Part shown: positions 510 through 27,000 of the stretch, piece after piece | How the letters are laid out: every line of letters begins with the position of its first letter | How positions within the stretch are numbered: position 1 is the stretch's first letter | Source of the DNA: Marine Group III euryarchaeote CG-Bathy1 | GTDB taxonomy: Archaea; Thermoplasmatota; Poseidoniia; MGIII; CG-Epi1 | Direction of reading: 5' to 3' | DNA length: 64,000 nt | Assembly: GCA_001875425.1 (NCBI GenBank) | Contig: MIYU01000001.1 | Coordinates: 129,804 to 193,803 of the forward strand | Notes under the pieces: model-generated | Seen by the model: the letters and a program-made list of their open reading frames with translations, nothing else | Told to the model about the DNA's origin: nothing | Databases searched by the model: none | Program-made: the position numbers and the translations under genes

Positions 510-1319
510 TTAAGTAAAAGATCTGAGGAGAACGGCTGCCATAATAATAGTCATAATAATCATCAAAATTTCTCCTATTGCAGCAGCAGCACTATCATTT
601 TCAACATAACAAGCATATCGTTCTTCTTTCATTTTTAGAATAGATTCTTTCTCTATATCTGAATCATATCTAAATACTGGATTTGGACTTTCTCCTTGAG
701 GTTTTCTCATTTTATTTAATTCTCCCTTTGAATATGCCTCCAAAGCTTCTTTCATCAATGTCGCTGCTGTAATCAATGTTTTGTAACAAGCATCTTGGTA
801 TGTTTCCCCTCTTTTCATACCAATTTCACGTTTCCCAACTAAATCTCCTGCATCTATTTCGGATGAACAAAAATGACAACTACTTCCTATCGGTATGTCA
901 TGATATATACTCCATGCAGGTGATGCCGAACCACGACATTCGGGCAGTAGTCCTGGATGTGAATTAAGTACGCCATCTCTTTTTTCTCCATATTCTAAAA
1001 TTTTTCCCCTAATAATACGAGTCCCTCCGAATATAATCATTTGAGGGGATATTTTCTCAATAAATTCCATACAATGTTCATCATTATGAATGGGCACTGT
1101 TTCTACAGGTATGTCATTATTTTTTGCTTGAATTGAAATCAATTCTCCAATTTCATTATCGCCAATACGGAATTCAAATTTTTCTCTTTCAATTCCACCC
1201 ACTTCCGAGTCTTCTTCTATTATGAGTGCAGGTTTCAATCCCGCACTAATAAGTTGAGATAACATCTCCCTTCCCCACGGGTGCTCTTTGATTGCCATGA
1301 ACACAAAATGAGGTTTCAT
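510..1319 (-). CDS. formyltransferase-fold protein (Fmt/PurN-like) with a hydrophobic C-terminal tail
   Basis: Contains 'VLNSHPGLLPECRG' (the N-x-H formyltransferase motif) followed by 'EIDAGDLVG' (catalytic Asp context). The C-terminus 'ILMIIMTIIMAAVLL' looks like a TM tail anchor. ATGA overlap with the upstream RidA gene. Confidence 0.7.
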   Translation of the reverse strand: MKPHFVFMAIKEHPWGREMLSQLISAGLKPALIIEEDSEVGGIEREKFEFRIGDNEIGELISIQAKNNDIPVETVPIHNDEHCMEFIEKISPQMIIFGGTRIIRGKILEYGEKRDGVLNSHPGLLPECRGSASPAWSIYHDIPIGSSCHFCSSEIDAGDLVGKREIGMKRGETYQDACYKTLITAATLMKEALEAYSKGELNKMRKPQGESPNPVFRYDSDIEKESILKMKEERYACYVENDSAAAAIGEILMIIMTIIMAAVLLRSFT

Positions 1320-1687
1320 TTGTGAGCTACCACTTTGAATTCTACAGCAATTGGTGTCGGAAGTGCCCCCACTTCAATAGTCGTACGTGTAACTTCATAT
1401 CCTTTAAGGTATTCTCCATATATTTCATTGAATTTTTTAAAATCGTTTTCCATATTTGTCAAAAACACCATTATGTCTACTACATTTTCCATTTCTAGAT
1501 CACACGCTTCTAATACGGCTTTAACATTTCTAAATACTGCATGTGTCTGAGCTTCTATCCCATCAGGTATCTCATCTGTTTTCGGTTCTCTAGGGCCTAT
1601 TCCTGATAAGAATACAAATCCATCAACTTCTTTTGCATGAACGTATGCTCCAATAGGCTTTGCAGATTTTTCAGTATTAATCGCCAT
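1316..1687 (-). CDS. RidA/YjgF-family enamine/imine deaminase (2-aminomuconate deaminase AmnD-like by context)
   Basis: 'KPIGAYVHAKEVDGFVFLSGIGP' and the C-terminal 'IEVGALP..VEFKVVA' match RidA. I prefer the ATG at 1687 (MAINTEK..) over the ORF-track start at 1732, which overlaps the upstream gene by 56 nt. Confidence 0.8.
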   Translation of the reverse strand: MAINTEKSAKPIGAYVHAKEVDGFVFLSGIGPREPKTDEIPDGIEAQTHAVFRNVKAVLEACDLEMENVVDIMVFLTNMENDFKKFNEIYGEYLKGYEVTRTTIEVGALPTPIAVEFKVVAHK

Positions 1688-2636
1688 CAGTTCCTTCCAT
1701 TGTTCCCATTTCAACTTGCCGATATAAATCAAGAACTTCTAAATCGCCTTCATAAACTTCAGGATTTTCTTCATCATATTCTAAATCTCCAGTGCCTTTT
1801 TCCACGGGAGTCAAGGAAACTACAGCACCTCCTGTTCCTATTATTGGCTCATAAGCATGTATTTTTCCAGAATAAAGATTGCTTTGTCCCATGATTGCAG
1901 AAAGCCACCAAAATGGCTTAAAACTTACAACCTTTGGAACTCTCGCTTCTTGATGAAATTGCCGAGATAGCTGAGATACATCTTCCAATCTTCCTTTTTC
2001 TAAATATTCTAAAAATTTTCTATTCCATTCATCATCTTTAGAAGAATGTATCTTATCATTTTCTGCATTCATAGGTGTTGTAATCAATCTGTTAGAAAGA
2101 CTACCTACTACTACTGCAACAGCCTTTCTTTTCTGTTCCCGAACTGCATCTCTCAAAGCTTTACCTAGTACTACAGTTTCAGATCTATTTGCATAAACAT
2201 TACTACTAACTATTATTGCAGGTATTGAATTTTTTGGATTCAAGAGTTTTAAAGCAACTACGGATCCAGTATCTATGGGAAATCCATCATATGCCACAGT
2301 ACGTGTATGGAGCCCCCTTTCTTCACATGTATTTTTACAATGTTTTGCAAACTCAGAATCTATTTTGAATTTATACGGCATACTCCCTAATTCATGAAAT
2401 TCCTCATCAACATGTGTCCATTCAGGATTAGGCATCGCTTGTATTTGATGTCCTAATACCGAAGGCCAATATGTGCTATAAATTATTAATAAATCAGCAT
2501 CACTCTCTTCTATTTCCTTTTTACCTACTTCAAATCCGTCTCTAATAGCTCCCCATCCTTTATTTTTTTCAGGACAGAGTAAGGGGTGTGGCAATCCAGG
2601 AACTAACATTCCAAGTTTGATTACATCATCTCTCAT
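1677..2636 (-). CDS. LigB-family extradiol dioxygenase paralogue, probably a non-catalytic alpha-type subunit (AmnA-like)
   Basis: Same fold signature as the upstream gene ('LVPGLPHPLL'). The second metal-ligand region reads 'IIYSTYWPS' where the partner has 'IHTPHW'. ATGA overlap with the upstream gene. Confidence 0.65.
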   Translation of the reverse strand: MRDDVIKLGMLVPGLPHPLLCPEKNKGWGAIRDGFEVGKKEIEESDADLLIIYSTYWPSVLGHQIQAMPNPEWTHVDEEFHELGSMPYKFKIDSEFAKHCKNTCEERGLHTRTVAYDGFPIDTGSVVALKLLNPKNSIPAIIVSSNVYANRSETVVLGKALRDAVREQKRKAVAVVVGSLSNRLITTPMNAENDKIHSSKDDEWNRKFLEYLEKGRLEDVSQLSRQFHQEARVPKVVSFKPFWWLSAIMGQSNLYSGKIHAYEPIIGTGGAVVSLTPVEKGTGDLEYDEENPEVYEGDLEVLDLYRQVEMGTMEGTDGD

Positions 2637-3538
2637 TTTTCACCTCTTTCAGAATCCCATTCAATGATGGCGTTACCAGTTCCTATTACACTTCCATACG
2701 CATGTATTTTTGCTTCATACTTTGGAAAATCAAGTGCACTGATTAACCAAGTTAAACTTCCTGCATCAGTTTCTGCCATTGTTTGTTCCGTAAAATCTGG
2801 CATGATGTCTATCAATTCTCTATTTTTCCCCTTTAACATTAAATTAATTATTTTCATATCCCAAATGTATTGGTTATGATTCGTTACATGTTCTTTACTC
2901 ATATCTTCTGGCAACTCTGGCTCTACCGTAAAGTGTCTATGAGATAAAGAATTAGATGAAAGTAACAATGCTCGCTTACCACTTTTTTCAATCGCTTCTC
3001 TCGTCGCTTTACCGAGTTTTAACATATTGGCTTGCATAATTTCGTGTGAAAAATAACTAGATGCTCGATTGGATGAAATTACAACTATAGGTTTATCCCA
3101 TTCAGGTCTGGTTAAGTGACAACTGGTAATGGTTCCATAATCTATTCTAAAATCAGGATTTTCCATCATTTTTACATGCAATCCTTCCTTTTCTGCAATA
3201 TTATGTATTTCACGAGATAATTCTACATCAACGTTTAAGTCATAATCATATCTAAAAAGATTAGGAAATACGGGATCAACCGATTTTGATTTGAAATTTT
3301 CCACTCCCAAGAAGTGAGTTCCAATGAATGTTTGCCAATGCGGTGTATGTATTACTATGACATCAAATTCCTTATCACTCATACTTTCACGTAATCGTTC
3401 ATAGCCCCATCTTAATTCCTCCCATCCACCTTCCGATACAGGTTCATTTTGTGGCGGATTTTCTGCATATACTAAATGAGGTGGATGGGGGGCTAATGCT
3501 CCCATGACAATTTTTCCCTTTTCACTCATTTTTTTCAC
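2633..3538 (-). CDS. LigB-family class III extradiol ring-cleavage dioxygenase, catalytic beta-type subunit (AmnB-like)
   Basis: 'GALAPHPPHLV' and 'VIVIHTPHWQT' are histidine motifs characteristic of LigB/AmnB-type dioxygenases. The start is uncertain (M1, M4 or M12). Confidence 0.75.
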   Translation of the reverse strand: MKKMSEKGKIVMGALAPHPPHLVYAENPPQNEPVSEGGWEELRWGYERLRESMSDKEFDVIVIHTPHWQTFIGTHFLGVENFKSKSVDPVFPNLFRYDYDLNVDVELSREIHNIAEKEGLHVKMMENPDFRIDYGTITSCHLTRPEWDKPIVVISSNRASSYFSHEIMQANMLKLGKATREAIEKSGKRALLLSSNSLSHRHFTVEPELPEDMSKEHVTNHNQYIWDMKIINLMLKGKNRELIDIMPDFTEQTMAETDAGSLTWLISALDFPKYEAKIHAYGSVIGTGNAIIEWDSERGEK

Positions 3539-4982
3539 CCATTTCGATACAGACGTTCTGTAACTCTGAAAAGAAGTCTAAAGAGTATCTGCCCCCTTCT
3601 CTACCCACACCTGAATCTTTCATTCCACCAAACGGCACCCTCAAATCTCTCAAGAGCCATGTGTTTACCCAAACCATTCCAGATTCTAAATCTGCACTTA
3701 TTCTATGTGCACGCGATAAATCGCTAGTCCACACGCTAGCAGCCAATCCATAGTTAACAGAATTAGATATTGCAACAGCTTCTTCTTCTGTCTCAAATGG
3801 ATGTATTGTAGCTACAGGCCCAAATATTTCTTCCGTTGCTGTGCGGCAATTCGGAGGTAAACCTGAAATTATTGTGGGTTCTAAAAATGCACCATTATTC
3901 CAAGGATTTTTCAATTCTGGCCGTTTACCTCCACATTCAATACGCCCACCTTCTTCAATCCCCAATCTTATGTATTCCTCAACTTTATCACGGTGTTCGT
4001 GAGATATAACTGCTCCCAAATCTACATTTTTGTCAGAAGGATTTCCAATTTTCATTTTCTTCGTAGCTTTTACTATCCCTTCTAAAAATTGGTCATGAAT
4101 TTTACGTTCTACTAATATTCTAGAACCGCATAGACATACTTGTCCTTGATTTGTAAATGCCGCTCTCACTGCGCCATTTATCGCTTTATTTAAATCTGCA
4201 TCAGCAAAAACTATCGTTGGATTTTTTCCACCCAATTCTAATGATATCTTTTTAAAAGTTGAAGAAGCAGCCTCTGAAACTTTCGCTCCAGCATCCGTAG
4301 AACCCGTGAATGATACGGCAGCTACATCTTGATGTAAAGATAGAGGCTTACCTACTTTAGATCCAGATCCATGTACTAAATTGAAAACTCCATTTGGAAG
4401 TCCAGCTTCATTCATAATCTCTGCTAATGCCGAAGCTGTTAACGGAGTCATGGAGCTAGGTTTCGCTACAACCGTATTACCCATAACTAATGCAGGAGCT
4501 GTTTTCCACGATAGTAAATATATCGGTAAATTCCAAGGCGTTATCAATGCAACAACTCCTAACGGCTTTCTTAAAGTATAATTTACAGCATTTTTCATTT
4601 TATGAAATCCCAATTCATCATGCCGCGCTGCGCCTGCAAAAAAGCGAAAATTAGCAATAGCTCGAGAAATATCTGTATCAAATGCCAACCTAATTGGTTT
4701 ACCCGTGTCTAATGATTCTAATTCAGCTAATTGCTGTTTTCTACTTTCTATAATATTTGCAATTTTCTCTAAAATATCTGCACGTTCATCTACACTTTTA
4801 GCACTCCATTTAGGCAACGCACTCTTCGCTGAATAAACTGCAGCATCTACATCAGATTTATCGCCAAGAGGGACTTTAGAAATTATATCGCCCGTGGCAG
4901 GATTTCTATTTTTCATATACTTACCAGATACGGGTGTATGGAATTTTCCATTAATATATTGTTTAAGCTCCATCACTTTCAT
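3522..4982 (-). CDS. NAD(P)+ aldehyde dehydrogenase (2-aminomuconate/2-hydroxymuconate semialdehyde dehydrogenase-like by context)
   Basis: ALDH hallmarks are present: 'ELGGKNP', 'FTNQGQVCLCGSRILV' (catalytic Cys) and 'EEIFGPV'. ATGA overlap with the upstream gene. Confidence 0.9.
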   Translation of the reverse strand: MKVMELKQYINGKFHTPVSGKYMKNRNPATGDIISKVPLGDKSDVDAAVYSAKSALPKWSAKSVDERADILEKIANIIESRKQQLAELESLDTGKPIRLAFDTDISRAIANFRFFAGAARHDELGFHKMKNAVNYTLRKPLGVVALITPWNLPIYLLSWKTAPALVMGNTVVAKPSSMTPLTASALAEIMNEAGLPNGVFNLVHGSGSKVGKPLSLHQDVAAVSFTGSTDAGAKVSEAASSTFKKISLELGGKNPTIVFADADLNKAINGAVRAAFTNQGQVCLCGSRILVERKIHDQFLEGIVKATKKMKIGNPSDKNVDLGAVISHEHRDKVEEYIRLGIEEGGRIECGGKRPELKNPWNNGAFLEPTIISGLPPNCRTATEEIFGPVATIHPFETEEEAVAISNSVNYGLAASVWTSDLSRAHRISADLESGMVWVNTWLLRDLRVPFGGMKDSGVGREGGRYSLDFFSELQNVCIEMGEKNE

Positions 4983-6079
4983 TGTTTAGTCTCGTGTTCG
5001 TTAGGGTCGAAATACCATCTATCATTATCAGGATCCCATTCATCCCAAGTATATATCTCCTTCAATGACGGTAAGTATTCTGATGGTACTATCCCCGACA
5101 CTAGAAATGCCTTCTGTCTTCTTAACGAGTATGGATTTCTCAATTTCATACCAAGAACTCCTAAAATTCCTCTAGCAACATACCATGCTGCTTGAGGATT
5201 CCATCCATGAGCTATTTTCACTACAACTCCTAATCCCTTTGGATAATCTTTATGTTCTATTGCCATTCCAAGGAGTCCATCTGCTCCCTCTTTAGCTATT
5301 ACTTTCCCTTTACAAGATTTTATAATAGTTGTATCTAGTCGATTAAAACCACCTACTAAGTCTGGATTCTTTACAATAGCATCCCAAATCCAATCCTCTT
5401 TTTTATTCGAAACAATACCTGCATAACAAGTAGCTAATTCATTTACAGTATTCGATACAGTAGGAAATCCATCACCATCTCTTGCTATTCTTTCAGGTTT
5501 CCATTCTTCTCCTAAAAAACGCTTAACTTGTTTTAAGTATTCAAAGAAAAATTCATGACTTGGTAGCGTATAGCCTGCCCTATTCCAACCCTTTTTTCTA
5601 CAACCTAGAAGAATTGCAGCATGTTGACCTGAAGAATTCGAATACCATCGACGAGCTCTTCTAACTTGTCTACCAAATTGAATCAAAGGAAGGTCAAGAG
5701 GCGTTTGCATCAACCCCCATTCTGCTCGAGGAAGTAACGATTGCGCAGTTTTGACATGTTCTGCAGTTCCATTATGGCTAGAAACAGAAATTGCTTTTTG
5801 CTCCCAACTTAACTCTTCCAATTCTTCTGAAAATACTTTGAGCATTAATGGTTTCATCATAGAACGCCCATAGCATAGAACATTACCTCCAAAACTATGT
5901 ATAATTTCGTCGCCACTTGCCCAAGAAACAGCCCCGTGTATTGTCGTTTCCGAAACGCCATTACGTCTATAATCAACTAATGGTTCCCATTCTACATCTC
6001 TTCCTGTTGGCACTTCTCCATCCGTATCTCCCAAGGGGTTGCTTGGATAGAGGTTCTCAATTTCTTTTGGATGTGTCAT
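4979..6079 (-). CDS. asparaginase II-family (Pfam Asparaginase_II-like) amidohydrolase
   Basis: 'RSMMKPLM', 'SSHNGTAEHV', 'NSSGQHAAILLGC' and 'DGDGFP' match my recollection of the thermolabile asparaginase II family motifs. Confidence 0.7.
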   Translation of the reverse strand: MTHPKEIENLYPSNPLGDTDGEVPTGRDVEWEPLVDYRRNGVSETTIHGAVSWASGDEIIHSFGGNVLCYGRSMMKPLMLKVFSEELEELSWEQKAISVSSHNGTAEHVKTAQSLLPRAEWGLMQTPLDLPLIQFGRQVRRARRWYSNSSGQHAAILLGCRKKGWNRAGYTLPSHEFFFEYLKQVKRFLGEEWKPERIARDGDGFPTVSNTVNELATCYAGIVSNKKEDWIWDAIVKNPDLVGGFNRLDTTIIKSCKGKVIAKEGADGLLGMAIEHKDYPKGLGVVVKIAHGWNPQAAWYVARGILGVLGMKLRNPYSLRRQKAFLVSGIVPSEYLPSLKEIYTWDEWDPDNDRWYFDPNEHETKQ

Positions 6080-7344
6080 TTTCTAAGCTCCTTTATTCTA
6101 GGAACTACTTTTTTCATGAATGCTTCCATATTTCTAATAACTCTGTCTGAATCATGATTGAAAAAATCAAACCAAGCCATAACACAATCTTCAGAATGGA
6201 ATCGTTCAACCATCTGTTTAGCTATGTCTTCTGTATTTCCAATTACTGCATTATCTGCAGCTTTCGAAACTTTCATCGGATCTATAGTTCCTTCAAGAGC
6301 TCCCCAATATGAATTCAAGGCTTTCTCAGCTTCACACTTTGCCTGTTCCGTTTTCTCCTTTTCTGAAAGTCCGTTTTCGTCATTAATGAATATCATAATA
6401 GTTCTAGGCATGTATTCTCTCTTCCAAACACCTCCTTCAGGATGATAGTGTTCCATCATTCGTTCATGAGTTTTTTCTATTACTTCTGGCGGGGTTATCG
6501 ATAAATTAAATGTTTTTACAGGTCTTATTTTATTTACCTTTTTTTGCAATTCTGGATCATGTGAACCTAATACAAGATCAAGTAACTCTCTATTCCAATT
6601 TTGAGGTATATTTTTTACATCTTCAAAGTTATATCTTTTAGGTATTTCTATTTTTTCAGGCATCTTTTCCAAACTATCTCTTTCCATAGCTGCTATCTGT
6701 ACTCTTTTCCAATCTTCATCACTTCGAAATAATTTTCGCTCTAACACCGTCTCTGATATCATATTGCTATTGATAGTTTCTCCATTTATCAATCTCAAAA
6801 AGATTTCACAAGCTTCAGAAAATATTTGCCCTCTAAGAGCAGGCCATGCTTCCTCTTCAACAGAATCTCTTGGAACAATTCCATACGGTCTTGCCATAAA
6901 TTCAAATCTTCCTGCAGAAAATCCAATACGTAGTTTCCGTTTCTCTTCTTTTTTTAGTCCATGAAGTGCAATGAATGCACCTACTCTTTCTGCTATTCCA
7001 ATAGGTCCTCCATGTGTCAAAATACTCATTACCGCCGATCCAACATTTATTTTTTCGGTAGATAAAAATACAAGGTGAGCTAACTGAAAAAAATCTGTAC
7101 AAAGCCCCACCTCTCCTTTCCAATGAGGCACTACTGGATTTTTATTATTTTTCTGAATCTCCGTTGAGAGGTGTGCTTGGGCTACCCATGCCGTTTCAAA
7201 TCCTAATTCATCCGCAGCCTTTACCTGTTCAAAAAAATGCTCAAACATTTTTTGTTCAGTAGGCATTTCACCTTCTACAGGCGTTTGGCATATAGATAAA
7301 AAAATGTCAATTTTCATTTCAAATAGAATTCGTCCTTCCACCAT
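6076..7344 (-). CDS. luciferase-like (LLM class) flavin/F420-dependent oxidoreductase or monooxygenase
   Basis: N-terminus 'MKIDIFLS...FEQVKAADELGFETAWVAQAHLS' is typical of the LLM family. The more likely start is the ATG at 7317 (MKIDIF..). Confidence 0.7.
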   Translation of the reverse strand: MVEGRILFEMKIDIFLSICQTPVEGEMPTEQKMFEHFFEQVKAADELGFETAWVAQAHLSTEIQKNNKNPVVPHWKGEVGLCTDFFQLAHLVFLSTEKINVGSAVMSILTHGGPIGIAERVGAFIALHGLKKEEKRKLRIGFSAGRFEFMARPYGIVPRDSVEEEAWPALRGQIFSEACEIFLRLINGETINSNMISETVLERKLFRSDEDWKRVQIAAMERDSLEKMPEKIEIPKRYNFEDVKNIPQNWNRELLDLVLGSHDPELQKKVNKIRPVKTFNLSITPPEVIEKTHERMMEHYHPEGGVWKREYMPRTIMIFINDENGLSEKEKTEQAKCEAEKALNSYWGALEGTIDPMKVSKAADNAVIGNTEDIAKQMVERFHSEDCVMAWFDFFNHDSDRVIRNMEAFMKKVVPRIKELRK

Positions 7345-8056
7345 CTACTGGAAGACTAACCCCCCTCACAAAACTCGCTTCCGGCGATGCCAAAAAAGCC
7401 ACAACACTTCCCAATTCTGAAGGGGTCGCAAGCCTCCCTTCAGGTACTGTTTCTAACCAAGTACGCTCAACATCTTCTGCCGTGCAATTACGTTGTTTAG
7501 CTAAAGTTTTTTTCAATTCTTCTAATCTTCCGGTTGATGTAAAACCAGGCAGAACATTGTTAATTGTAATTCCTTTTGGTAATTCTTTGGACATCGTTTT
7601 CGACCAAGATGCCATCGCACCCCTTATTGTATTACTAACTCCAAGTCCAGCTATAGGTTCTTTTACAGATGTCGAAATAATATTAATAATTCTTCCATAT
7701 TCTGATTTTTCCATACCAGGTAAAAGTAAACTAACTAATTTCTGCGATGCGAGTACATGTCTTCTAAAGGCCTTTTCAAATTCCTCTACTTTTGCTTCAA
7801 CAATCGACCCAGAAGGTGGGCCTCCTGAATTATTTATTAAAATTTGATAGTTTCCATTTGTTTCTATATCTTTATTTACTTTTTCTTCCAAACTTTCTAT
7901 ATCTTCCATATCACAAGATATATTATTTTCACCCATTGCAGTACGGGCCAAAATAGTCACCTTCGCTCCTCTTTTACTAAGTTCTTCAGCAGCAGCCTTA
8001 CCGATTCCTTTAGTCCCTCCACATACTAATGCCCTATATTCCTTCAAGTCATTCAT
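7319..8056 (-). CDS. SDR-family oxidoreductase (FabG-like)
   Basis: 'ALVCGGTKGIGKAAAEEL' is a Rossmann TGxxxGxG motif; 'NNSGG' is also present, and the length is typical. 8-nt overlap with kynA. Confidence 0.85.
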   Translation of the reverse strand: MNDLKEYRALVCGGTKGIGKAAAEELSKRGAKVTILARTAMGENNISCDMEDIESLEEKVNKDIETNGNYQILINNSGGPPSGSIVEAKVEEFEKAFRRHVLASQKLVSLLLPGMEKSEYGRIINIISTSVKEPIAGLGVSNTIRGAMASWSKTMSKELPKGITINNVLPGFTSTGRLEELKKTLAKQRNCTAEDVERTWLETVPEGRLATPSELGSVVAFLASPEASFVRGVSLPVDGGRTNSI

Positions 8057-9062
8057 TTGTTTCTCCTACAAAACTATAAAATTCAGAATTTTTTAATTCA
8101 GGCAATTCTTCTTTTTTAATTAAAATAGTTCTCACACCCCATAAATCAGTAAACACACGGTATCTCGATGTTCTATCTAGATAATCTACACCAGATGAAC
8201 CTCCTGTACCTATTCTACGCCCAATCATCCTTTCAACCATACGTGCATGTGATGACCTCCATAACAACATCGATTCTTCCAATTCTACCATGGTGTCGAT
8301 TAGTTTTCTTGGCCAAGATAATAGGGGGAGTTCACGATACGATTCTATAAATAAAAGTCCAGCACGAGCTCGATCACATTCACCGTTCGGTTTCAAAAAT
8401 TCAGATGCTTGTTTATTCACATCTTTAAACCTATTACTAGTTTCATCATCATCATTATTAGACAATGCATGGGCGGCTTTTTCACCCAATTTAAGATGTA
8501 TATCTAAGTATTCATTTACAAATTCTGAAACTGCTTGACCATCATTAGAGTCATTCGGCAATGATCCCTGTATTGGCGTTCTTGCAAGCCATTTAGTCAC
8601 AACTTCTTGTATCGATTTTTCATTTATCTTATTTTCTATTTTTTTCCCATCAATCCAAAAATCACCCATTATTGCTTCCATCGTTCTCATCTGTTTCGAT
8701 TCAAAACCAGAAGCCGTTCCCAATTCATCTCTAAATGACAAAAATCCTTGGGGGGTAAGAGTTTCCATAACTTTCCATTGTTGCGCCATCAATCTAAAAG
8801 TTTCAATTCCTCTCTCCATATGATGAACTGCTTTCGGTATTTTCGTCTCCTCAACGTAGCTTTCATCTAAAGTATCTCTCGCCTGTCTCAATTCACTAAT
8901 CACTAGTTTAAACCAAAGTTCAAATGATTGATGCACTATTATGAAATGTAGTTCATCTGAGCTTATATTTTCTTCTTTTTCTTTCCACCCACTCTGTAAA
9001 GATAGTAATTCTTTCAATCTCAAATATTCTGGGTAACTTCCCTTATCTGTAGGCGTAGGCAT
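8049..9062 (-). CDS. kynA: tryptophan 2,3-dioxygenase
   Basis: 'YPEYLRLKELLSLQ' and 'DELHFIIVHQSFELWFKL' are signature TDO motifs. First gene of the operon. Confidence 0.85.
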   Translation of the reverse strand: MPTPTDKGSYPEYLRLKELLSLQSGWKEKEENISSDELHFIIVHQSFELWFKLVISELRQARDTLDESYVEETKIPKAVHHMERGIETFRLMAQQWKVMETLTPQGFLSFRDELGTASGFESKQMRTMEAIMGDFWIDGKKIENKINEKSIQEVVTKWLARTPIQGSLPNDSNDGQAVSEFVNEYLDIHLKLGEKAAHALSNNDDDETSNRFKDVNKQASEFLKPNGECDRARAGLLFIESYRELPLLSWPRKLIDTMVELEESMLLWRSSHARMVERMIGRRIGTGGSSGVDYLDRTSRYRVFTDLWGVRTILIKKEELPELKNSEFYSFVGETNE

Positions 9063-9100
9063 ACTTTGCTAAATTTAGACGGAATATAAAGTATAGAGGT

Positions 9101-10033: not shown

Positions 10034-12522
10034 TATTCCGTTTCTATTTCAGTATTTTCTTCATCTATTTTCAGGTAAACTGCAACAGCTACTACTTTTT
10101 CTTTGTCTTTTAATTTAATCAATCTACTTCCTCTGCCAATTCTTTTCATTTCTCTAAGTTCGTCTATATTCGTGTTAATAACTTTTCCAGAACTAGTCGT
10201 TGCCATAATCATGTCTGCATCTCCTACTGATATCGAGGATACTACTTTCCCATATTTTTCAGTTTTAGTATTTATTACACCTTTCGACCCCCTTCTAGTT
10301 AGTCTATAATTGCCTGCCTTGGCTCTTTTACCCCATCCCATCTCTGTTATCGTTAACAATTCCTCCTCTTCATTAACAATGGCCATACTTTTCACTCCAT
10401 CTCCTTCTTTCAATCTAATTCCAATAACTCCTTGTCCAGCACGCCCAACAACTCTTACTTGATTTTCAGGGAATCTATTCGCCATTCCGTCATTCGTTGC
10501 TAACATGATTTCACTTTCTCCATCTGATATCCCTACAGAAATCAACTCATCTCCTTCTTTCAAAGTGATCGCTCTAAATCCTTGATCACTTCTCCATGCC
10601 CGTTCAACTCTAGATGCATATTCTTCCATACGTGTCTTTTTAACAATTCCATTTTTCGTTGCAAAAATTAAGTAATTATCTGGGCTACTTATGTTTGGCA
10701 CAGGCAGCATATTCAATATCTTTTCATCATTTTGATGTCTACGTTCATCTAATTTTTCCAGTAGTTGTACTATCGGAGTCCCTTTCGCGTATCTTGATAC
10801 ATCAGGGATTTGCCACCCCTTTAGGAAATACATACTACCTTCACTAGTAAAGAGAAGTACATGGTCATGAGAGTTCATTGAATGCATCTCAACCGGTACA
10901 TCTCCTTCTTTGGCTTTAATTCCAATCATACCCGTACCTCCGCGATGCTGTATTCTAAAATCTTCTAAAGGCATTCTTTTGACGTAAGATTCATCCGTTC
11001 TCATAACTACTACTTCTTGTTGAGGAATCAAATCTTCAGTTTCTATCTCTCCTTCATGTTCTGAAATTTCCGTTCTACGTTCATCACCATATTTCTCTTT
11101 TAACATTTCTAATTCCTTTCTTATGATGCTGCGAATTCTATTCGGATCTGCTAATGTAGCATCCAATTCTGCTATTTCTCCATTTAATTCCTTTAATTCA
11201 TTTTCTCTGGCATTTCTATCTTGTTTAGAAAGCTGATAGAGGCGCATTTCAGCAATTGCTTCAGCTTGTTTTACACTCAATTTAAATTGTTTTTTCAATC
11301 CGTCTATTACGTCTTTTCTATTATTGGCACTTCTTATGAAAGAAATAACTTGACTCATTTTGTTTATAGCTATTAAAAGTCCTTCAACTATATGTGCTCG
11401 GTCTTTAGCTATTTTTAACTGAAATTTTGTTCTTCGAGTTACAACCTTTTTTCTGTGATTAATATATACCTTCAATAATTCTTTCAAAGACAACCTTTGT
11501 GGCTGTCCATCCACTAGTGCAGTATTATTCACTGCAAACGTACTCTCTAAAGAAGAATGTTTGTATAGTAAATTTTCAATAATAACTGCAGAGGCGTCTC
11601 TCTTCAATTCAATAATTATACGCATACCTTTTCTATTAGATTCGTCCCTAAGATCCCTTATCCCTTCTATTTTTTTATTTTTAACTAAATTTGTAATCTC
11701 TTTCAAAAGACGACCTTTCTCAAGTGAATAAGGTATTTCTGTAATGACAATCTGTGTCGTTTTTTTTGTTTCTTCTATATTCGTTCTTCCTCTAATTTTA
11801 ATCGAACCTCGTCCATTTGAATATGCTTCAAACACACCAGCTCTTCCCATTATTACTCCGCCTGTAGGAAAATCTGGACCAGGTATTACTTGTATGAGTT
11901 CAGAGGTCCTAACTCGTGGATTTTCCATAGTTAAGATAACTGCATCAATCACTTCATTTAGATTATGAGGTGCCATTTTTGTTGCCATTCCTACGGCTAT
12001 TCCTTCCGATCCATTAACAAGTAAATTCGGTAACATACTAGGCAATACAGATGGCTCTTTCAAGGAACCATCATAATTCTCTCCATAGTCTATAGTTTTC
12101 TTTTTTAAATCTTGTAATACAATTTCAGCAATAGGAGTTAATCTGGATTCCGTATATCTCATCGCAGCAGCACGATCGCCATCCACAGAACCAAAATTAC
12201 CCTGCCCATCAACTAAAGGATATCTAAGTGAAAACGATTGTGCCATTCGCACCATCGAATCATAAATTGCTTGGTCTCCATGAGGGTGATATTTACCCAT
12301 CACATCTCCTACTATACGGGCGCTTTTTTTGTATGCAGATCTAGAACCAGAGCCCATTTCTTTCATTGCATATAGTATTCTTCTATGTACTGGTTTTAGC
12401 CCATCTCTAGCATCCGGCAACGCGCGACCTACAATTACAGACATAGCATAATCTAAGTATGATTTTTTCATCTCAGTTGTGAGCGCTTTGTCTTCTATTC
12501 TTTCATTATTATCCTTATTCAA
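10033..12522 (-). CDS. gyrA: DNA gyrase subunit A
   Basis: '[28 protein letters not shown]' and 'RYTESRL' (active-site Tyr region) are present. The C-terminal beta-pinwheel repeats are also there. Confidence 0.97.
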
Positions 12523-12603
12523 TATATCTCTCCGAAATAGTGCATTACCCTAGTTCTATGACCCCATAAAAGGCGTTCGTATGGTCTAAAAATAACTTTC
12601 TTT

Positions 12604-13281
12604 TTAATAAAGGTGCATCGCTTCTTCTATTTGCCCTAATTCTATACCTGTACTGTTCGTCCCACAGACCCCACCTTTAGAATTACAAACGAGTCCAGCA
12701 CCTATTAATGGCATTCCAAAAGCAACAGTCCCATTACTCACTTCTGTTCCAACAATCTTTTTCATGATATCTTTATCTTCATCATTTATTTCTGGGTGAA
12801 CAAGTGCGCCAGATGGTGAAAAACAACCCAACATTCCGATAGTTTCTATTTCTATGAATTCTTTTGAAATTATTTCAATTCCTAAAGTTTCTTCAATTTT
12901 CTTTATATTTTTATTTATTATCTTCGGATTACAAAATCCGGATTTATTATTTATTAACAAATTATTTCCAGCAGCATTATTTCTATCATCTAATATCATA
13001 AAATTCATTTTATTTTTTTTAGCTATCTCCTCTATCTTTTCCCGTTCCCTTTCACTAGCTATGTTGGAACAAACTATTCCATTATCGTTCAAACAAATAA
13101 GAGAACCAATAACTCTACTTCCTCCTACTGTAATAATTTCTACTTCAGTATCTAAGGCCTCTTCTATATCTCTATATTCTTCTTCTGAAAGTCCCGGAGG
13201 CAATAATGTCAATTTTTCCGAGGTTGCACAAAAAACACCAGAATAAGGGCTATTGAATAAATCTCGTTGAATGAGTGCCAT
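12604..13281 (-). CDS. eif6: translation initiation factor 6 (aIF6)
   Basis: About 225 aa with a pentein-like repeat pattern. 'NSPYSGVFCATSEK' and the repeated 'G..L..N..G' units fit aIF6. It sits in the conserved eS19-eL39-eL31-aIF6 cluster. Confidence 0.9.
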   Translation of the reverse strand: MALIQRDLFNSPYSGVFCATSEKLTLLPPGLSEEEYRDIEEALDTEVEIITVGGSRVIGSLICLNDNGIVCSNIASEREREKIEEIAKKNKMNFMILDDRNNAAGNNLLINNKSGFCNPKIINKNIKKIEETLGIEIISKEFIEIETIGMLGCFSPSGALVHPEINDEDKDIMKKIVGTEVSNGTVAFGMPLIGAGLVCNSKGGVCGTNSTGIELGQIEEAMHLY

Positions 13282-14551: not shown

Positions 14552-15120
14552 TAAATTCTAGCAATTTCGTTTGCCGTTGCCATTTTACTCTTTTTTCCAC
14601 CTTTTAACATTATATTAGTAATTTTAAATCTACGTTTTTCATGTGTTATATTTCCACCAATTTTAAACATTTCTTCAAACGAATATTTTTTGTAAAAAGT
14701 CCTAGTATGTTCACCTTCATTAAATGAAAAGTTAACTTTCACTTCACTTATGTTTCGAGTCCAAATAACAATTCCCCTCTCAGCCTCTATTTCTTTTACA
14801 TTTCTATTTTCTTTTTCAATTCTAGTAATCTCCAAGGTTCCTTCTTGATGTAAAATCCTCGCTCCAACTCTCAGATAGTCTCTTTCTTCTACTTTTAAAA
14901 CGTCTTTACGCGTTTTATCTCCATCAGAAATAAGCACGTTAATTTCAATAATTTTCTTCTCTTTAATTGTTCTTGTAGTGGTATTCTCACATTTACTACA
15001 TTTTACAATTCCATCAAATGAATTATTCTTCTTATTACGATTTTTTAAAATATAATGTATCTCTTCATCATCGCAGTATTTGCATGGAAGCCAAATTTGC
15101 TCATATTCCTCTTCAATCAT
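14542..15120 (-). CDS. hypothetical zinc-ribbon protein
   Basis: 'CKYCDD'...'CSKCEN' forms a CxxC-x(n)-CxxC pair at the N-terminus. The ATG at 15120 overlaps the purH stop by 1 nt (TGATG). Confidence 0.45.
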   Translation of the reverse strand: MIEEEYEQIWLPCKYCDDEEIHYILKNRNKKNNSFDGIVKCSKCENTTTRTIKEKKIIEINVLISDGDKTRKDVLKVEERDYLRVGARILHQEGTLEITRIEKENRNVKEIEAERGIVIWTRNISEVKVNFSFNEGEHTRTFYKKYSFEEMFKIGGNITHEKRRFKITNIMLKGGKKSKMATANEIARIYCR

Positions 15121-16658
15121 CAATGGCGAAAGTGTCTTTCTCCCGTAAAAACCATAGACACTCCTATTTTATTTGCACTATCGATTACTTCTTGATCTCT
15201 TATCGAACCGCCTGATTGAATAATTGCGGTTACTCCAGCTTCAGCAGCCGCTTCTATACCGTCTGGAAATGGAAAGAAAGCATCAGATGCCATAACTGTA
15301 CCTTTCGCATCAGGTCTAGATTTGAAAGAAGCAATCTTTACTGAATCAACTCTAGACATTTGTCCAGCCCCTATACCGACAGTTCGTTTACCCTTCGTAA
15401 AAACTATCGCATTAGATCTAATGTGTTTCATTAATTTCCATCCATACATTAAACCATCCCATTCTTCTTCACTGGGTTTTTTGTCTGTAACTATCGTACA
15501 TTCTTCTCTTGTTATTCTTTTTTTGTCAGATTCTTGTACAAGCCACCCACCTGCAACTGATCTCATTTGTTTTCCTGCTTCATATCGTACTATGTCTCCA
15601 ACTTCTAACAATCTCATATTTTTTTTCTGACTTAAGATTTTCAGAGCTTCTTTAGAGAATGCTGGTGCAACCACACCTTCTTTGAATGATTCTACTATTT
15701 TGTTGGCAGTTTCCATATCTACTTCTCTATTAATTCCAATTATTCCACCAAATGCTGACGAAGGGTCGGTTTCCAGAGCAGAACTGTATGCTTCAGATAT
15801 TATTTCAGATGAAGCCACACCGCACGGATTCGTATGTTTGATTATAACGACAGTAGGTTCTTCAAAATCAGCTACTATTGCTAATGCACCATCAAAATCA
15901 AGTATGTTATTGTAACTGAGCTGTTTCCCCTGTAATTGTTTAGCCGTGGCTATTGATGGGGTGTCTATTCTGGGGTTTATGTAAAAAGCTCCTTTTTGAT
16001 GAGGATTTTCTGCATATCTTAACTCACCCTTCCTTTCTCCTATTATTGTTAAATCATCACTAGTTAAACTTTCTATATCAAAACGATTAGACAATTCAGA
16101 TTGTATGTATGAATCATACTTGGCAGTATGCTGAAATGCTTTCAGAGCTAATTTCTCTCTCATACTTACATCTATTTTTTGATTTTCAATTGCTTGAATT
16201 ACTTCATTATAATCCCCAGGTTCAACAACAACACAAACTCTGGAATAATTTTTAGCCGCAGCTCTAATTAAACTAGGACCTCCTATGTCTATCATCTCTA
16301 TTAATTCAGGTAAAGATTCTTCATTTTTTGCAGTTTCTTCAAATGGATATAAGTTTACTACAACTAAGTCTATATCTTCTATCCCTAAACTTTCTTTTTG
16401 TTCTTTATCCTTTTCTCTAGCCAATATTCCTCCAAATATCTTCGGATGTATAGTTTTCACTCGCCCATCCATAATTTCTGGAAAATCTGTTATTTTCTCA
16501 ACACTTTTTACTTCAATACCTTCATCTTCAATGACTTTTTTTGTACCGCCTGTGGATATTATTTCAATACCACATTTCGCCAATTTTCTTGCAAATTCAG
16601 CTACTCCTTCTTTATCGCTTACACTAATCAAAGCCCTTTTCACAGACATTTTTTCCAT
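15120..16658 (-). CDS. purH: bifunctional AICAR transformylase / IMP cyclohydrolase
   Basis: 'KRALISVSDKEG' is the MGS-like domain start, followed by a full-length AICARFT domain. The start is the ATG at 16658 or 16649; the ORF-track start at 16682 is a TTG. Confidence 0.95.
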   Translation of the reverse strand: MEKMSVKRALISVSDKEGVAEFARKLAKCGIEIISTGGTKKVIEDEGIEVKSVEKITDFPEIMDGRVKTIHPKIFGGILAREKDKEQKESLGIEDIDLVVVNLYPFEETAKNEESLPELIEMIDIGGPSLIRAAAKNYSRVCVVVEPGDYNEVIQAIENQKIDVSMREKLALKAFQHTAKYDSYIQSELSNRFDIESLTSDDLTIIGERKGELRYAENPHQKGAFYINPRIDTPSIATAKQLQGKQLSYNNILDFDGALAIVADFEEPTVVIIKHTNPCGVASSEIISEAYSSALETDPSSAFGGIIGINREVDMETANKIVESFKEGVVAPAFSKEALKILSQKKNMRLLEVGDIVRYEAGKQMRSVAGGWLVQESDKKRITREECTIVTDKKPSEEEWDGLMYGWKLMKHIRSNAIVFTKGKRTVGIGAGQMSRVDSVKIASFKSRPDAKGTVMASDAFFPFPDGIEAAAEAGVTAIIQSGGSIRDQEVIDSANKIGVSMVFTGERHFRH

Positions 16659-16699
16659 TTTATTTCTGTTTGACAATTCCAAATTACCTCTATTTTTTT

Positions 16700-24031: not shown

Positions 24032-27000
24032 ATGAATCGTAGCGTTTTGCCACTTTTAGTGTGTGCAATACTCATTTCCACTCCATTATTCATGCCTCTT
24101 TCAGAGTCATCTAACAGTGACAAAGATGTCCAAGGTTGGTGGTCTAATTATTCCAGAGATAAAGATAGAGATGGAATCAGCGATGTGTTAGAATGGAAAT
24201 TACAACAAGGTAATCGTTTCTTTGAGCCAGATTCAGCACGTGTTTTCATAAGATACGATCATCATCCCACAGATTCAGATATTGAAAAATTAGAAAAATT
24301 AGGAATAGAAGTAACTTATCGTGCTCAATATATCGACTTAGTTGCTACTACAATGCCTCGTAATCTAGTCTATCCAGTCTCTACTTGGTACGGCATTGTA
24401 ATGCTCGATGACATCGGTAAAGCAGTTCCACACATGAATGAAGCCGTTCCTGCAATGGGGGTAGATCAAGTTTGGAACAATTACGGTATTTATGGAAACG
24501 GAATCTCTATCGCTATAGTCGATACCGGGGTTGATAATGCCCATGTCGGTTTAGATGATATGGATGATAACATTCAAACTATGGATGATCTAAAAGTTGT
24601 AGCTTATTATGATGCAGTTCAAGATAATTTAGTATGTTCACCATGCTTACCTGGTGAATCTTTGGATAGTGGTACACACGGTACCCATGTTGCAGGTATA
24701 GCAGCAGGTACTGGTGATGGAGAGGCAGCACCAGACGGTTCACGCCATATTGGTGTCGCACCGAAAGCTAGCTTAGTCAACGTTCTTTCATGTTGCGATG
24801 GTGATATTGAAGACATTATCAGAGGTGTTGAATGGACGATAACTAATCAAAAACTAGTCGAACCAAATATCAGAGTTATGACATCCAGTCTCGGCGAACA
24901 ACAAATCGAATTTCATATCGATAACGATGGAAGCTCTGCTTGGAGTCAAGTTGTCGATGCCGCAGTAGAATCTGGCCTCGTAGTTACTTTGAGTGCAGGT
25001 AATGAATTTGGCTCAGCTACTGCAGCCGGTTGTAACACTATCGATTCACCCGGTGATTCAAGATTACCCATAACAGTCGCTTCTCTCGACAAAGATTTGA
25101 GTTTGGCAATATATAGCTCCAGAGGGTATACTTCGGATGGAAGAGTCAAGCCAGATGTCGCCGCTATAGGAAGCAGTATCATGGCCCCTAACAAGGGAAC
25201 TGGAACAGGTTACACTAGTAAAAGCGGAACTAGTATGGCCACTCCTTTGATGGCAGGTATTGTAGCTTTAACTTTAGAGGCTAATCCCGATTTAACCCCA
25301 ACAGAAGTTAAGGATACGTTAGTTGCAGGCTATTCTATCGAACGAGAAATATTAGATGATGATATAGATGCAGCATCTAATAATTGCTCAATTGCAGAAA
25401 CTAGACCGGACAACGAGTATGGTTATGGGCAGGCTGATCCAAAAACGTTCGTAGATATCTCTGGAAATATTGATTCTTCTTTGAGTATAAATTGGTCGTT
25501 AGAACCTGAATATATGTTAGTGAATGATTCTTACGTAGAGGTCAAACCAAGAATATATAACGAAAGTTGGATTAGAGGGGTCTCTGATTCTTCTGGTCAA
25601 TCAATTAGCATTGGTGTCGAGGTTCGTTTTGGCGTTGATAGTTGGTCTTTAGCAGATGATTTATCAGATAATGGTGATTGGAGTGAGTGGCAAATCAAAG
25701 TTCCTGAACAGACCAAAAAAGGCAATCAAACATTATACGCAAGATTAGTGGCCAATTCTGAACAAATGTCTCCCATGGCATCAGCATCTGTAGTTCTTCT
25801 CGATGAATACGATACTGATGATATCGGTTCTATTTCTTCACTTTCAGATTCAACAATTCTTCTATTGACGGCATTATTACTTGTTTTAACTGCCGGTGTG
25901 GGCATCCCTGTATGGAAGCGATATCGAAAATTAGTTAACAGTAGCACAGAAAATCAAAAACAGAATGTAAATCATCTCTTATTGTTTAGATCTTTAACGG
26001 ATGCTGCTCAGATTGCATTACTATACTGGACGGCTATGCGTTTCTTTTTACGAGATGAAGGGGCAAGCCAATCATTAGTTTCTGCCTATTATGGGATTGC
26101 GCTATTGGTTTTGGGCGTCAGTTTAATTTTTTGGGGGTACATAGCCGATACATATGGTTCTAGAAGAAAAATTCTTCTTTATACTTCAATCGGCTGCGCT
26201 ATTCTCTATCTCTTTATTCCATTTTTAGGCATATACGGTACAGTTTTCATTTCTATATTTCTATTGATGCTCCACGGTTCCGGTCGTATACCTAGGGCGA
26301 TTGCTTCTGAGTATTATCCTGATTGCCAAGGCGAATTCAATGGAGTTTTCTGGGGTATGTTCGCTTTGATATATTCTGTAGCATATCTTGCTGCTCCATC
26401 GATATACGAGTCTTTTGGTATGAATGCAATAGTCTTCTTCTGTTTATTATTGAATATTGCAGCAGCGTTCTGCGCATTCCGTTTAAACGAAATTGATGTT
26501 ATGCCTGGAACATTAGTTACTGATTCATCAACTCCTCTCGATTTTAATTCAAATTCATTCTCTTTAGATTCTCTACGTTTCAAGAATTCCTGGGTTAAAT
26601 GGATTTTACTAACCGTTTTCTTAATCTATATTCCTCGCGGAGTCATCGTTTACAATGCTCCGAATTATTTTGATGATATAGGTTATGACAGAAGTTTTGT
26701 TGGTGTAATAATGGGTTATTCGGTTGTAGCTTCTGTTATTCTTTATCCTTGGCTCGGTTCTGTTTGTGATCGTTTAGGAGCTTGGCAAGTACTTCTTTGG
26801 TCTGCTTTATTGTATATTCTCCTATGGGGTACTTTCAGTTCTGCCGTATCTACGCATCTGTCTGCATTTATTTTTATAATTCCTGTAATTCCATTTTTAC
26901 GTACTTCTAGAGATACGTTATTGTCTCAACTAACTGACTTGGATGAACGGAGTAAAGGTATGGGTTGGGGGGTTTTCATCGGTACACTTGGATATTCAGT

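Follow-up and report, generated by a model that had tools for sequence, protein, structure and literature searches.

A tryptophan 2,3-dioxygenase gene joined to an aminophenol-type ring-cleavage module in marine archaea and bacteria: a possible non-canonical kynurenine pathway

The kynurenine pathway ranks among the best-studied routes of amino-acid metabolism, and its middle steps, performed by kynurenine 3-monooxygenase (KMO), kynureninase, 3-hydroxyanthranilate dioxygenase (HAAO) and aminocarboxymuconate semialdehyde (ACMS) decarboxylase (ACMSD), are usually taken as fixed. In the canonical kyn/nba pathway of Burkholderia cenocepacia and Cupriavidus, tryptophan is fed by tryptophan 2,3-dioxygenase (TDO) and an arylformamidase (KynB) into this middle section, which comprises an FAD-dependent KMO, a PLP-dependent kynureninase, a cupin HAAO and an ACMSD of the amidohydrolase type, and which releases alanine and CO2. 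The pathway ends with 2-aminomuconate-6-semialdehyde dehydrogenase (AMSDH) and a RidA-type 2-aminomuconate deaminase, generating 2-oxohex-3-enedioate. A LigB-type dioxygenase made of a catalytic beta and a degenerate alpha subunit is encoded by the amnBACFEDHG operon of Pseudomonas sp. AP-3, by cnbCaCb of Comamonas sp. CNB-1 and by the actinobacterial ARO locus (7txy), and in the 2-aminophenol operons a 2-aminomuconate-semialdehyde dehydrogenase and a RidA-family deaminase are encoded together. Here we analyse a 64,000-nt stretch of the genome of the Marine Group III (MGIII) euryarchaeote CG-Bathy1 (contig MIYU01000001.1; the whole stretch is called the window), in which a minus-strand cluster of nine genes spanning 510–9062 joins a TDO to a dioxygenase of this kind. 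The cluster is probably a non-canonical tryptophan/kynurenine catabolic operon that feeds meta-cleavage of the AmnBA type.

Starting at the 5′ end, the genes encode TDO, an atypical short-chain dehydrogenase/reductase (SDR), a luciferase-like flavin monooxygenase (LLM), a homologue of class-3 asparaginases (AsnaseII in the gene orders below), an aldehyde dehydrogenase (ALDH), the LigB subunits AmnB and AmnA, a RidA-family protein and a formyltransferase-fold protein (FT). The cluster shares with the canonical pathway both its start (TDO and, in the bacterial versions of the cluster, KynB) and its end (AMSDH and RidA). Between these KMO, kynureninase, HAAO and ACMSD are replaced by LLM, the asparaginase homologue, SDR and AmnBA, and aspartate is the predicted by-product in place of alanine and CO2. 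Compared with the 2-aminophenol operons, the cluster lacks amnEFGH (4-oxalocrotonate decarboxylase, hydratase, aldolase and acetaldehyde dehydrogenase), has TDO, SDR, LLM and the asparaginase-like hydrolase placed ahead of the shared genes, and carries arginine in place of tryptophan or leucine by the catalytic histidine of AmnB; the aminophenol would derive from tryptophan, not from nitroaromatics. Tryptophan and kynurenine are not mentioned in the paper on the ARO microcompartment, the source of 7txy. A back end of the amn/cnb/nba type and a kynA front end (with kynB in bacteria) are already known. No described counterpart was found for the LLM clade, the zinc-less class-3 asparaginase homologue, the SDR lacking its tyrosine or the displacement of KynB by FT, and a full-text literature search of incomplete coverage gave no published description of the cluster or the route.

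All nine open reading frames (ORFs) are present on the minus strand where the original prediction had placed them, and each of its nine fold assignments is upheld by Pfam and NCBIfam (Table 1). It had described the genes as stacked, quoting four overlaps that are confirmed on the sequence. TDO and SDR overlap by 8 nt (8049–8056; ATGAATGA), and ATGA overlaps connect the asparaginase homologue with ALDH (4979–4982), AmnB with AmnA (2633–2636, the beta gene preceding the alpha) and RidA with FT (1316–1319). A further ATGA, absent from that list, lies between LLM and the asparaginase homologue (6076–6079). ALDH and AmnB overlap by 8 nt if AmnB starts at ATG 3529, or by 17 nt with GTG 3538, and AmnA and RidA by 11 nt with the start of RidA corrected to ATG 1687 from TTG 1732. 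SDR and LLM are separated by 1 nt; the start of LLM is most likely ATG 7317, giving 413 aa, and not 7344, because its orthologues are of that length. All eight junctions are therefore overlaps or a 1-nt gap. Junctions of ≤1 nt make up 12 of the 36 same-strand junctions elsewhere in the window, and the tightness of the cluster has p ~1.5e-4 assuming independent junctions. The G+C content of the cluster (0.36–0.38) is the same as that of the remaining window. A TATA-box-like TTTATAT is located 22–28 nt upstream of the TDO ATG (9062), within the 38-nt spacer that follows the deoxyhypusine synthase (DHS) gene, a position that would fit a promoter belonging to the operon and a leaderless or short-leader transcript.

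More than 100 loci, archaeal and bacterial, show co-conservation of the gene order. With the asparaginase homologue as query, a scan of one genome per species gave 54 loci and placed the window in Marine Group III/Poseidoniia (the best locus is 93% identical and has the same gyrA–DHS–TDO context); a scan of metagenomes gave 80 further loci. Searching by tblastn with all nine proteins, the complete order TDO–SDR–LLM–AsnaseII–ALDH–AmnB–AmnA–RidA–FT was found in ~27 Poseidoniia loci. The pathway had been proposed as an archaeal one, but the cluster is not archaea-specific. Planctomycetota, Myxococcota and 'Deltaproteobacteria' share the order of the first eight genes; Pfam-annotated Planctomycetota contigs read TDO–SDR–LLM–AsnaseII–ALDH–LigB–LigB–RidA–Cyclase. 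In a complete genome of Latescibacterota an MFS transporter and TDO are divergent from SDR–LLM–AsnaseII, with ALDH–AmnB–AmnA a few genes further on, and the metagenome scan contains a Bdellovibrio-like arrangement, SDR–LLM–ALDH–AmnB–AmnA–AsnaseII–RidA. The asparaginase homologue is 66–75% identical between archaea and bacteria, which makes horizontal transfer likely. Forty-five loci are covered for at least 6.5 kb either side of the asparaginase-like gene, and in these LLM and ALDH are each present in 43, AmnB and AmnA in 42, RidA in 40, SDR in 39 and TDO in 30.

The absence of the canonical middle enzymes, noted by the original prediction for the operon, extends to its surroundings. There is no KMO, kynureninase, HAAO or ACMSD among the 55 ORFs of the window, where the only FAD_binding_3 protein is geranylgeranyl-reductase-like, and none in the six Pfam-annotated neighbourhoods of other loci (L055–L058, L060 and L061).

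Table 1. Features of the tryptophan 2,3-dioxygenase-led cluster, in the order of transcription (window coordinates)
Feature	Positions	Strand	Family or basis
TATA-box-like TTTATAT, putative archaeal operon promoter	9084–9090	-	sequence reading
Tryptophan 2,3-dioxygenase (TDO, kynA), long eukaryote-like form, 337 aa	8049–9062	-	Pfam Trp_dioxygenase
Atypical NADP-type SDR, 245 aa	7319–8056	-	Pfam adh_short_C2, adh_short
Luciferase-like (group C) flavin monooxygenase (LLM), isolated clade, 413 aa	6076–7317	-	Pfam Bac_luciferase
Class-3 (Rhizobium-type) L-asparaginase homologue, 366 aa	4979–6079	-	Pfam Asparaginase_II
2-Aminomuconate-6-semialdehyde dehydrogenase-like ALDH (AmnC/NbaE type), 486 aa	3522–4982	-	Aldedh, 587 bits
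AmnB-type catalytic beta subunit, aminophenol extradiol dioxygenase, 298 aa from ATG 3529	2633–3529	-	LigB
AmnA-type non-catalytic alpha subunit, 319 aa	1677–2636	-	LigB
RidA-family deaminase, proposed 2-aminomuconate deaminase (AmnD-like)	1316–1687	-	Pfam Ribonuc_L-PSP, 98 bits
Formyltransferase-fold protein (FT), 269 aa, proposed folate-dependent KynB replacement	510–1319	-	Pfam Formyl_trans_N

The ring-cleavage module is closely related to those of the aminophenol operons. AmnB matches the beta subunits of 2-aminophenol and 2-amino-5-chlorophenol 1,6-dioxygenases with E-values of 3.7e-111 (8ihg_A) and 3.3e-110 (3vsg_B), and is 54–55% identical to the solved beta subunits, free of gaps over 290 residues. 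The iron ligands His18, His67 and Glu256 and the catalytic base His200 are kept in 42–43 of the 43 sequences. An exact-match look-up of the window's AmnB found no record. AmnA (E = 7e-44 to CnbCa, 3vsg_A) lacks the second iron-ligand histidine and the catalytic histidine, with YSTYW and LSNRL in place of HxPHW and LSHxHF. The LigB pair groups with AmnB/AmnA and CnbCb/CnbCa and not with the protocatechuate or gallate types, in agreement with its first assignment, and the AmnC-like character of ALDH is likewise borne out. The best PDB matches of the latter are AMSDH (4i1w and 4npi; E = 5e-150, 503 bits), followed by hydroxymuconic semialdehyde dehydrogenase (423 bits), and all 45 sequences compared keep its catalytic Cys283 and Glu249. 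ALDH scores 594 bits on TIGR03216 (2-hydroxymuconic semialdehyde dehydrogenase), under the cut-off of 693; NCBIfam has no AMSDH model. RidA scores 109.4 on TIGR00004 (cut-off 106.25). Its putative role as a deaminase is assigned from the operon context and from its family, to which the bacterial and fungal 2-aminomuconate deaminases belong (bioRxiv 10.64898/2026.06.05.730449).

TDO is equally well defined (PF03301, 192 bits against a cut-off of 34.9). Its best PDB matches are Drosophila and human TDO, aligned over the full length (E = 8e-45), and four motifs are kept in 27–28 of 28 orthologues: the distal-histidine HQxFELWFK, the carboxylate-binding FRxxLxxASGF(E/Q)S, the proximal-histidine WRxxH, and GTGGSSG. 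It scores 160 on the bacterial equivalog TIGR03036, under the cut-off of 391, because it is of the long, eukaryote-like form. The Planctomycetota clusters have a short bacterial TDO that is ~30% identical to the long one of Poseidoniia. Between lineages, then, the first gene has been exchanged and the rest of the operon has stayed in place.

Removal of the formyl group appears to be handled by two different enzymes. The bacterial clusters end at their 3′ side with a KynB-like cyclase whose best match is the arylformamidase model TIGR03035 (191–202 bits, cut-off 223), and this ties the cluster to N-formylkynurenine. Together with the co-conserved gene order, it bears out the proposal that a kynA-led operon has been joined to a meta-cleavage set of the AmnAB type. 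No KynB was found in the window or in any Poseidoniia cluster surveyed. Over all loci surveyed 34 have FT only, 28 have KynB only and none has both; among the 45 fully covered loci one or the other is present in 33, never together. In other Poseidoniia clusters FT is the first gene, linked to SDR–LLM. FT scores 30.4 bits on PF00551 (cut-off 26.1) and falls far under the cut-offs of all the specific NCBIfam equivalogs. Its catalytic triad (Asn119-x-His121 and Asp156) and folate loop (PGLLPECRG; PGLLPxxRG) are nevertheless invariant in 23 sequences. From this distribution FT would seem to occupy the place of KynB specifically, and we propose it as a candidate aryl-formamide deformylase or transformylase. 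A gene for bifunctional PurH (AICARFT/IMPCHase) lies at 15120–16682 (-) of the window, in an archaeon; PurH is a user of 10-formyl-tetrahydrofolate (10-formyl-THF), which implies use of this cofactor by the organism. The complementary occurrence of FT and KynB, together with the intact folate motifs and the presence of PurH, suggests that in Poseidoniia the formyl group is passed to tetrahydrofolate and not freed as formate.

The FT of the window and of its closest relatives (including L001) is 269 aa in length, with an extra hydrophobic tail of ~30 residues (AAAAIGEILMIIMTIIMAAVLLRSFT, window 510–600), where most Poseidoniia orthologues have 238–245 aa. Either a membrane anchor or a read-through could account for the tail. 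Eight MGIII loci (L002, L006, L007, L012, L013, L015, L017 and L022) have an additional gene between ALDH and AmnB, encoding a YheT/PRK10985-like alpha/beta-hydrolase of 322 aa (for example L007 12545–13513). The enzyme could assist the pathway as an esterase or formamidase. An essential role of this kind was rejected, since the window and roughly half of the MGIII loci lack the gene.

The two genes between TDO and the asparaginase homologue form a tight pair, SDR lying directly upstream of LLM in 73 of 84 loci. The Pfam match of LLM (Bac_luciferase, 33.4 bits, cut-off 27.9) is confined to the N-terminus, and sequence and profile searches of the PDB gave only marginal matches, those of the profile search (E ~1e-3) being to two luciferase-like chains. 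An AF2 model based on 50 diverse aligned sequences has a pLDDT of 89 (a shallow alignment of 22 sequences gave 60) and adopts the TIM-barrel LLM fold; Foldseek matches it with probability 1.00 to luciferases, RslO1, RutA, SsuD/MsuD and 3,6-diketocamphane monooxygenase. The identity to these structural neighbours is ≤18%. Exhaustive phmmer searching of 1.84e9 representative proteins found only 312 relatives at E ≤1e-3, of which ~10 are full-length 50% clusters, and so the clade is isolated. More than 5,000 homologues were retrieved, most of them from the ocean and many from Tara Oceans samples. We propose that LLM is a Baeyer–Villiger/Dakin monooxygenase acting on (N-formyl)kynurenine. Dependence on F420 was set aside, the carriers not being known to produce F420.

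SDR retains GxxxGIG and NNxGG but departs from the classical Ser-Tyr-Lys pattern: the YxxxK positions are occupied by Ser141 and Arg145, invariant in 39 orthologues. The same Ser/Arg variant is found in the uncharacterized PDB entries 5va8 and 1o5i, and its relatives in the PDB include the conjugate reductase BacG (1e-23). The missing tyrosine and lysine argue against ordinary carbonyl reduction, and the pairing with LLM suggests that SDR is an NADPH:FMN reductase. It is a candidate for the flavin reductase partner of LLM, or alternatively for an enoate reductase converting 2-oxohex-3-enedioate to 2-oxoadipate.

Three further members or neighbours of the LLM clade may be mentioned. In a Poseidoniales variant (L061; FT–SDR–LLM ... 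AsnaseII–ALDH ... LigB) a nitroreductase/BluB-like gene (12018–12698, -) lies directly after LLM on the opposite strand, and its flavoprotein is a candidate for an alternative flavin reductase partner. A metagenomic protein of 1501 aa (P0364) has an LLM-clade member fused to class-I glutamine amidotransferase and ApbE flavin-transferase domains; this hints at flavin use, or may be an artefact of gene calling. The megaplasmid of Streptomyces clavuligerus ATCC 27064 carries a member that is 48% identical (L142, 532574–533779), with none of the partner genes alongside and uninformative neighbours (eCIS, DUF389 and polyprenyl synthase genes). As a gene of a cultured actinomycete, it could offer a way to study the chemistry of the clade by experiment.

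The asparaginase homologue accompanies the cluster in every arrangement, mostly located between LLM and ALDH, and after AmnA in the Bdellovibrio-like type. It scores 145 bits on Pfam Asparaginase_II and is distantly related to ReAIV (8cly, E = 6e-13). In ReAV of the same family Arg47, Ser48, Lys51, Ser80 and Lys263 are essential, and Arg47 holds the alpha-carboxylate of the substrate (PMC12292245). The corresponding pattern (Arg47, Ser48–Lys51 and Ser80–Lys263) is present in the homologue as Arg72-Ser73-x-x-Lys76, Ser101-His-Asn-Gly and Lys263-x-Gly-Ala-Asp-Gly. All 53 sequences of the alignment, 52 of them orthologues and one the window protein, have these residues (in one row Arg72 and Ser73 fall in a gap). 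The zinc site of ReAV (Cys135-Lys138-Cys189) is not conserved. Its positions are Ser149, Gln152 and Asp203 in the window protein and other Poseidoniia, and Cys, Glu and Cys in 19 bacterial orthologues. With the zinc site lost, the window protein is not filed as an asparaginase proper. Retention of the Arg47 equivalent and both Ser–Lys tandems is in keeping with a beta-derivative of aspartate as substrate, and the proposed role is hydrolysis of a beta-aspartyl aryl ester or anilide, which would free L-aspartate and an aminophenol. ReAV and ReAIV of Rhizobium etli (PF06089) share the Arg-Ser-x-x-Lys and the Ser and Lys tandems, but act on free asparagine, whereas the context of the cluster points to a bulky N4- or O4-aryl aspartyl substrate. 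A function as a PLP-free kynureninase was rejected, as there is no means of stabilizing the alanyl carbanion.

The chemistry that could connect these enzymes follows from the nature of kynurenine, an o-amino aryl ketone. In group C flavin monooxygenases (luciferase, type II Baeyer–Villiger monooxygenases (BVMOs), DszA and RutA) the flavin peroxide attacks electrophilic centres, and microbial catabolism of aryl ketones proceeds by a BVMO and an esterase, as with 4-hydroxyacetophenone monooxygenase (HAPMO). The Baeyer–Villiger product of kynurenine is a beta-substituted aspartate, and the phenol released from it, 2-aminophenol, is the textbook substrate of AmnAB. A beta-aspartyl ester or anilide is an analogue of asparagine; the adjacent gene encodes the asparaginase homologue, with its acyl-enzyme machinery and anchor for the alpha-carboxylate.

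The proposed pathway degrades L-tryptophan via kynurenine, bypassing KMO, kynureninase, HAAO and ACMSD. TDO, with the family and active-site motifs seen, would convert tryptophan to N-formylkynurenine (step 1). The formyl group would be removed by KynB in bacteria or by FT in Poseidoniia, probably to tetrahydrofolate (step 2); FT is given this role because of the complementary distribution and the intact folate and catalytic motifs, and deformylation may come before or after step 4. LLM, using reduced FMN possibly supplied by SDR, would carry out a Baeyer–Villiger/Dakin reaction on (N-formyl)kynurenine, placing an oxygen atom between the side-chain carbonyl and the ring; the aryl group would migrate, and the product would be the beta-(2-aminophenyl) ester of L-aspartate (step 3). 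With its amine free, this ester would tend to rearrange by an O-to-N shift to N4-(2-hydroxyphenyl)-L-asparagine. The Ser–Lys machinery of the asparaginase homologue would hydrolyse the beta-aspartyl ester or anilide to L-aspartate and 2-aminophenol (step 4). AmnBA would then cleave 2-aminophenol to 2-aminomuconate 6-semialdehyde (step 5a), ALDH would oxidize this to 2-aminomuconate (step 5b), and RidA would deaminate the product to 2-oxohex-3-enedioate (4-oxalocrotonate; step 5c), the substrates of all three being assigned by homology and context. Overall, tryptophan would be converted to aspartate, a C1 unit, ammonia and a C6 dicarboxylate.

The scheme accounts for each conserved gene except SDR. 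As a whole (the Baeyer–Villiger/Dakin step of LLM and hydrolysis by the asparaginase homologue, leading through aspartate and 2-aminophenol to AmnBA, ALDH and RidA) we think its chances of being correct about even. The combination of three new activities, that is the LLM reaction, hydrolysis by the zinc-less asparaginase homologue and a formyl transfer by FT that saves the C1 unit as 10-formyl-THF in Poseidoniia, is put forward more tentatively, as less likely than not; if all three were to hold, abundant marine archaea and Planctomycetota would possess a new tryptophan route to aspartate, a C1 unit, ammonia and 2-oxohex-3-enedioate. The original prediction had suggested that unrelated folds stand in for the canonical steps. 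The middle positions are indeed occupied by unrelated folds, with FT in place of KynB, but replacement one for one is unlikely. The middle folds more likely make up a shorter route to 2-aminophenol and aspartate than substitutes for KMO, kynureninase, HAAO and ACMSD individually.

Two described systems offer parallels. HAPMO and the aryl-ester hydrolase of Pseudomonas fluorescens ACB follow the logic proposed here, from ketone to ester to phenol and acid and thence to ring cleavage. This is an analogy only, with no homology implied: HAPMO is a single-component FAD/NADPH type I BVMO, while the cluster has a TIM-barrel LLM (type II-like) and the asparaginase homologue. The Rut operon (RutA LLM, RutB amidohydrolase, RutC RidA, RutD alpha/beta hydrolase and RutF flavin reductase) has the same combination of LLM, amide hydrolase and RidA, and its alpha/beta hydrolase is echoed by the optional one of some MGIII clusters. 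The proteins are not orthologous, however; the score on the RutC model is 53 bits against a cut-off of 169, and RutB has another fold. TDO, AmnBA and ALDH are additional to the Rut set.

Several observations weigh against the proposed pathway or parts of it. A second arrangement in Poseidoniia begins with FT and has no TDO nearby, and some Bdellovibrionales loci consist of AmnBA–AsnaseII–RidA with no LLM nearby. Nothing in the cluster encodes the onward metabolism of 4-oxalocrotonate. The scheme does not require SDR; few flavin reductases are of the SDR type, and SDR is present in two LLM-less loci (L067 and L068). The type II BVMO 4uwm is the 28th structural neighbour of LLM, with 13–14% identity, and given this rank and the low identities overall the reaction type rests on chemical logic and context. 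Lastly, Arg201 lies beside the catalytic histidine of AmnB in 42 of 42 cluster sequences, at a position that is Trp, Trp and Leu in 8ihg_A, 3vsg_B and 7txy_B, and could indicate a carboxylated substrate such as 3-hydroxykynurenine.

Arg201 and the LLM-less loci bear on the leading alternative reading of the middle steps, in which LLM (with SDR as its reductase) is a non-homologous kynurenine 3-hydroxylase and AmnBA cleaves 3-hydroxykynurenine. The asparaginase homologue would then carry out a retro-Claisen C–C hydrolysis by way of a beta-aspartyl-enzyme, freeing aspartate and leaving 2-aminomuconate (semialdehyde) for ALDH and RidA. An invariant, cluster-specific arginine would suit a carboxylate-bearing substrate, the retained Arg72 (ReAV Arg47) fits an aspartyl moiety here too, and the LLM-less AmnBA–AsnaseII–RidA of Bdellovibrionales could be a self-contained module. 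Three unprecedented activities are needed, however: an LLM would have to hydroxylate an aromatic ring, AmnB to accept a bulky substrate and a Ser–Lys amidohydrolase to hydrolyse a C–C bond. The gap-free alignment of AmnB with the 2-aminophenol enzymes argues against the second of these. Moreover, the closest metagenomic relatives of the Bdellovibrio hydrolase have SDR–LLM in the same cluster, and no canonical KMO or other hydroxylase was found in the neighbourhoods inspected of the LLM-less clusters (Bdellovibrio-like, L067/L065). The genes there are unrelated, encoding a TonB receptor, a solute-binding protein, an FA_hydroxylase protein, LysR, Ddl and a PP-loop protein. We regard this reading as rather unlikely.

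The position of the hydrolase between AmnA and RidA in the Bdellovibrio-like arrangement could also be taken to mean that it is a second, hydrolytic deaminase of 2-aminomuconate or its imine, or acts on another amide, with SDR and LLM making the aminophenol in some other way. An enzyme of the amidase family, CnbZ, reportedly deaminates 2-amino-5-chloromuconate in Comamonas. Such a function would duplicate RidA, which is present in 40 of the 45 full loci, and would leave the kynurenine side chain with no enzyme to remove it; the arginine for the alpha-carboxylate and the full asparaginase catalytic set point instead to an asparagine-like substrate. This assignment is improbable.

A biosynthetic role, giving quinolinate for NAD, picolinate, or a tryptophan-derived aminophenol or phenoxazinone metabolite, is less credible again. 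2-Aminomuconate semialdehyde and ACMS cyclize spontaneously to picolinate and quinolinate, and an NAD synthase is encoded elsewhere in the window. Conservation of an AMSDH-like ALDH and RidA with the dioxygenase means, however, that the semialdehyde is drawn off from cyclization; the cluster contains no gene for a non-ribosomal peptide synthetase, polyketide synthase, phenoxazinone synthase or QPRT, and the genes around it are housekeeping genes of proteolytic marine heterotrophs. Finally, an ordinary xenobiotic island for 2-aminophenol or nitroaromatics (amn/nbz type) with TDO adjacent by chance, suggested by the likeness of AmnB, AmnA, ALDH and RidA alone to amnBACD, is already contradicted by the co-conservation of the TDO/formamidase front end (TDO in 30 and arylformamidase or FT in 33 of the 45 fully covered loci, across phyla and in fixed order), lacks nitroreductase, hydroxylaminobenzene mutase and amnEFGH genes, and has planktonic marine archaea and Planctomycetota as its carriers, so that we give it almost no weight.

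If the route by way of 2-aminophenol and aspartate is correct, uncultured Marine Group II/III archaea and several bacterial phyla would share a different, conserved way of dismantling kynurenine, encoded by a cluster represented by hundreds to thousands of sequences from marine metagenomes. It would assign new reactions to three large and mostly unannotated enzyme families, show that a metal-dependent formamidase can be displaced by a folate-dependent enzyme, and constitute a physiological source of 2-aminophenol, a compound so far known mainly from the degradation of nitroaromatics. The fluxes of tryptophan, aromatic nitrogen and C1 units inferred from marine metagenomes would change accordingly.

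Three other proteins of the window are unusual in their construction. An ORF of 1045 aa at 24032–27169 (+) has an N-terminal subtilase (Peptidase_S8) fused to a C-terminal MFS transporter domain. At 53073–59324 (+) a protein of 2083 aa is made of Ig-like, CARDB, DUF11 and FixG_C-type repeats, with a Rad60-SLD (ubiquitin/SUMO-like) domain at residues 2013–2079. The class II (B12) ribonucleotide reductase at 40159–43860 (-) comprises 1233 aa, including a TSCPD domain; its barrel is matched in two stretches, and its length points to an insertion, for instance an intein.

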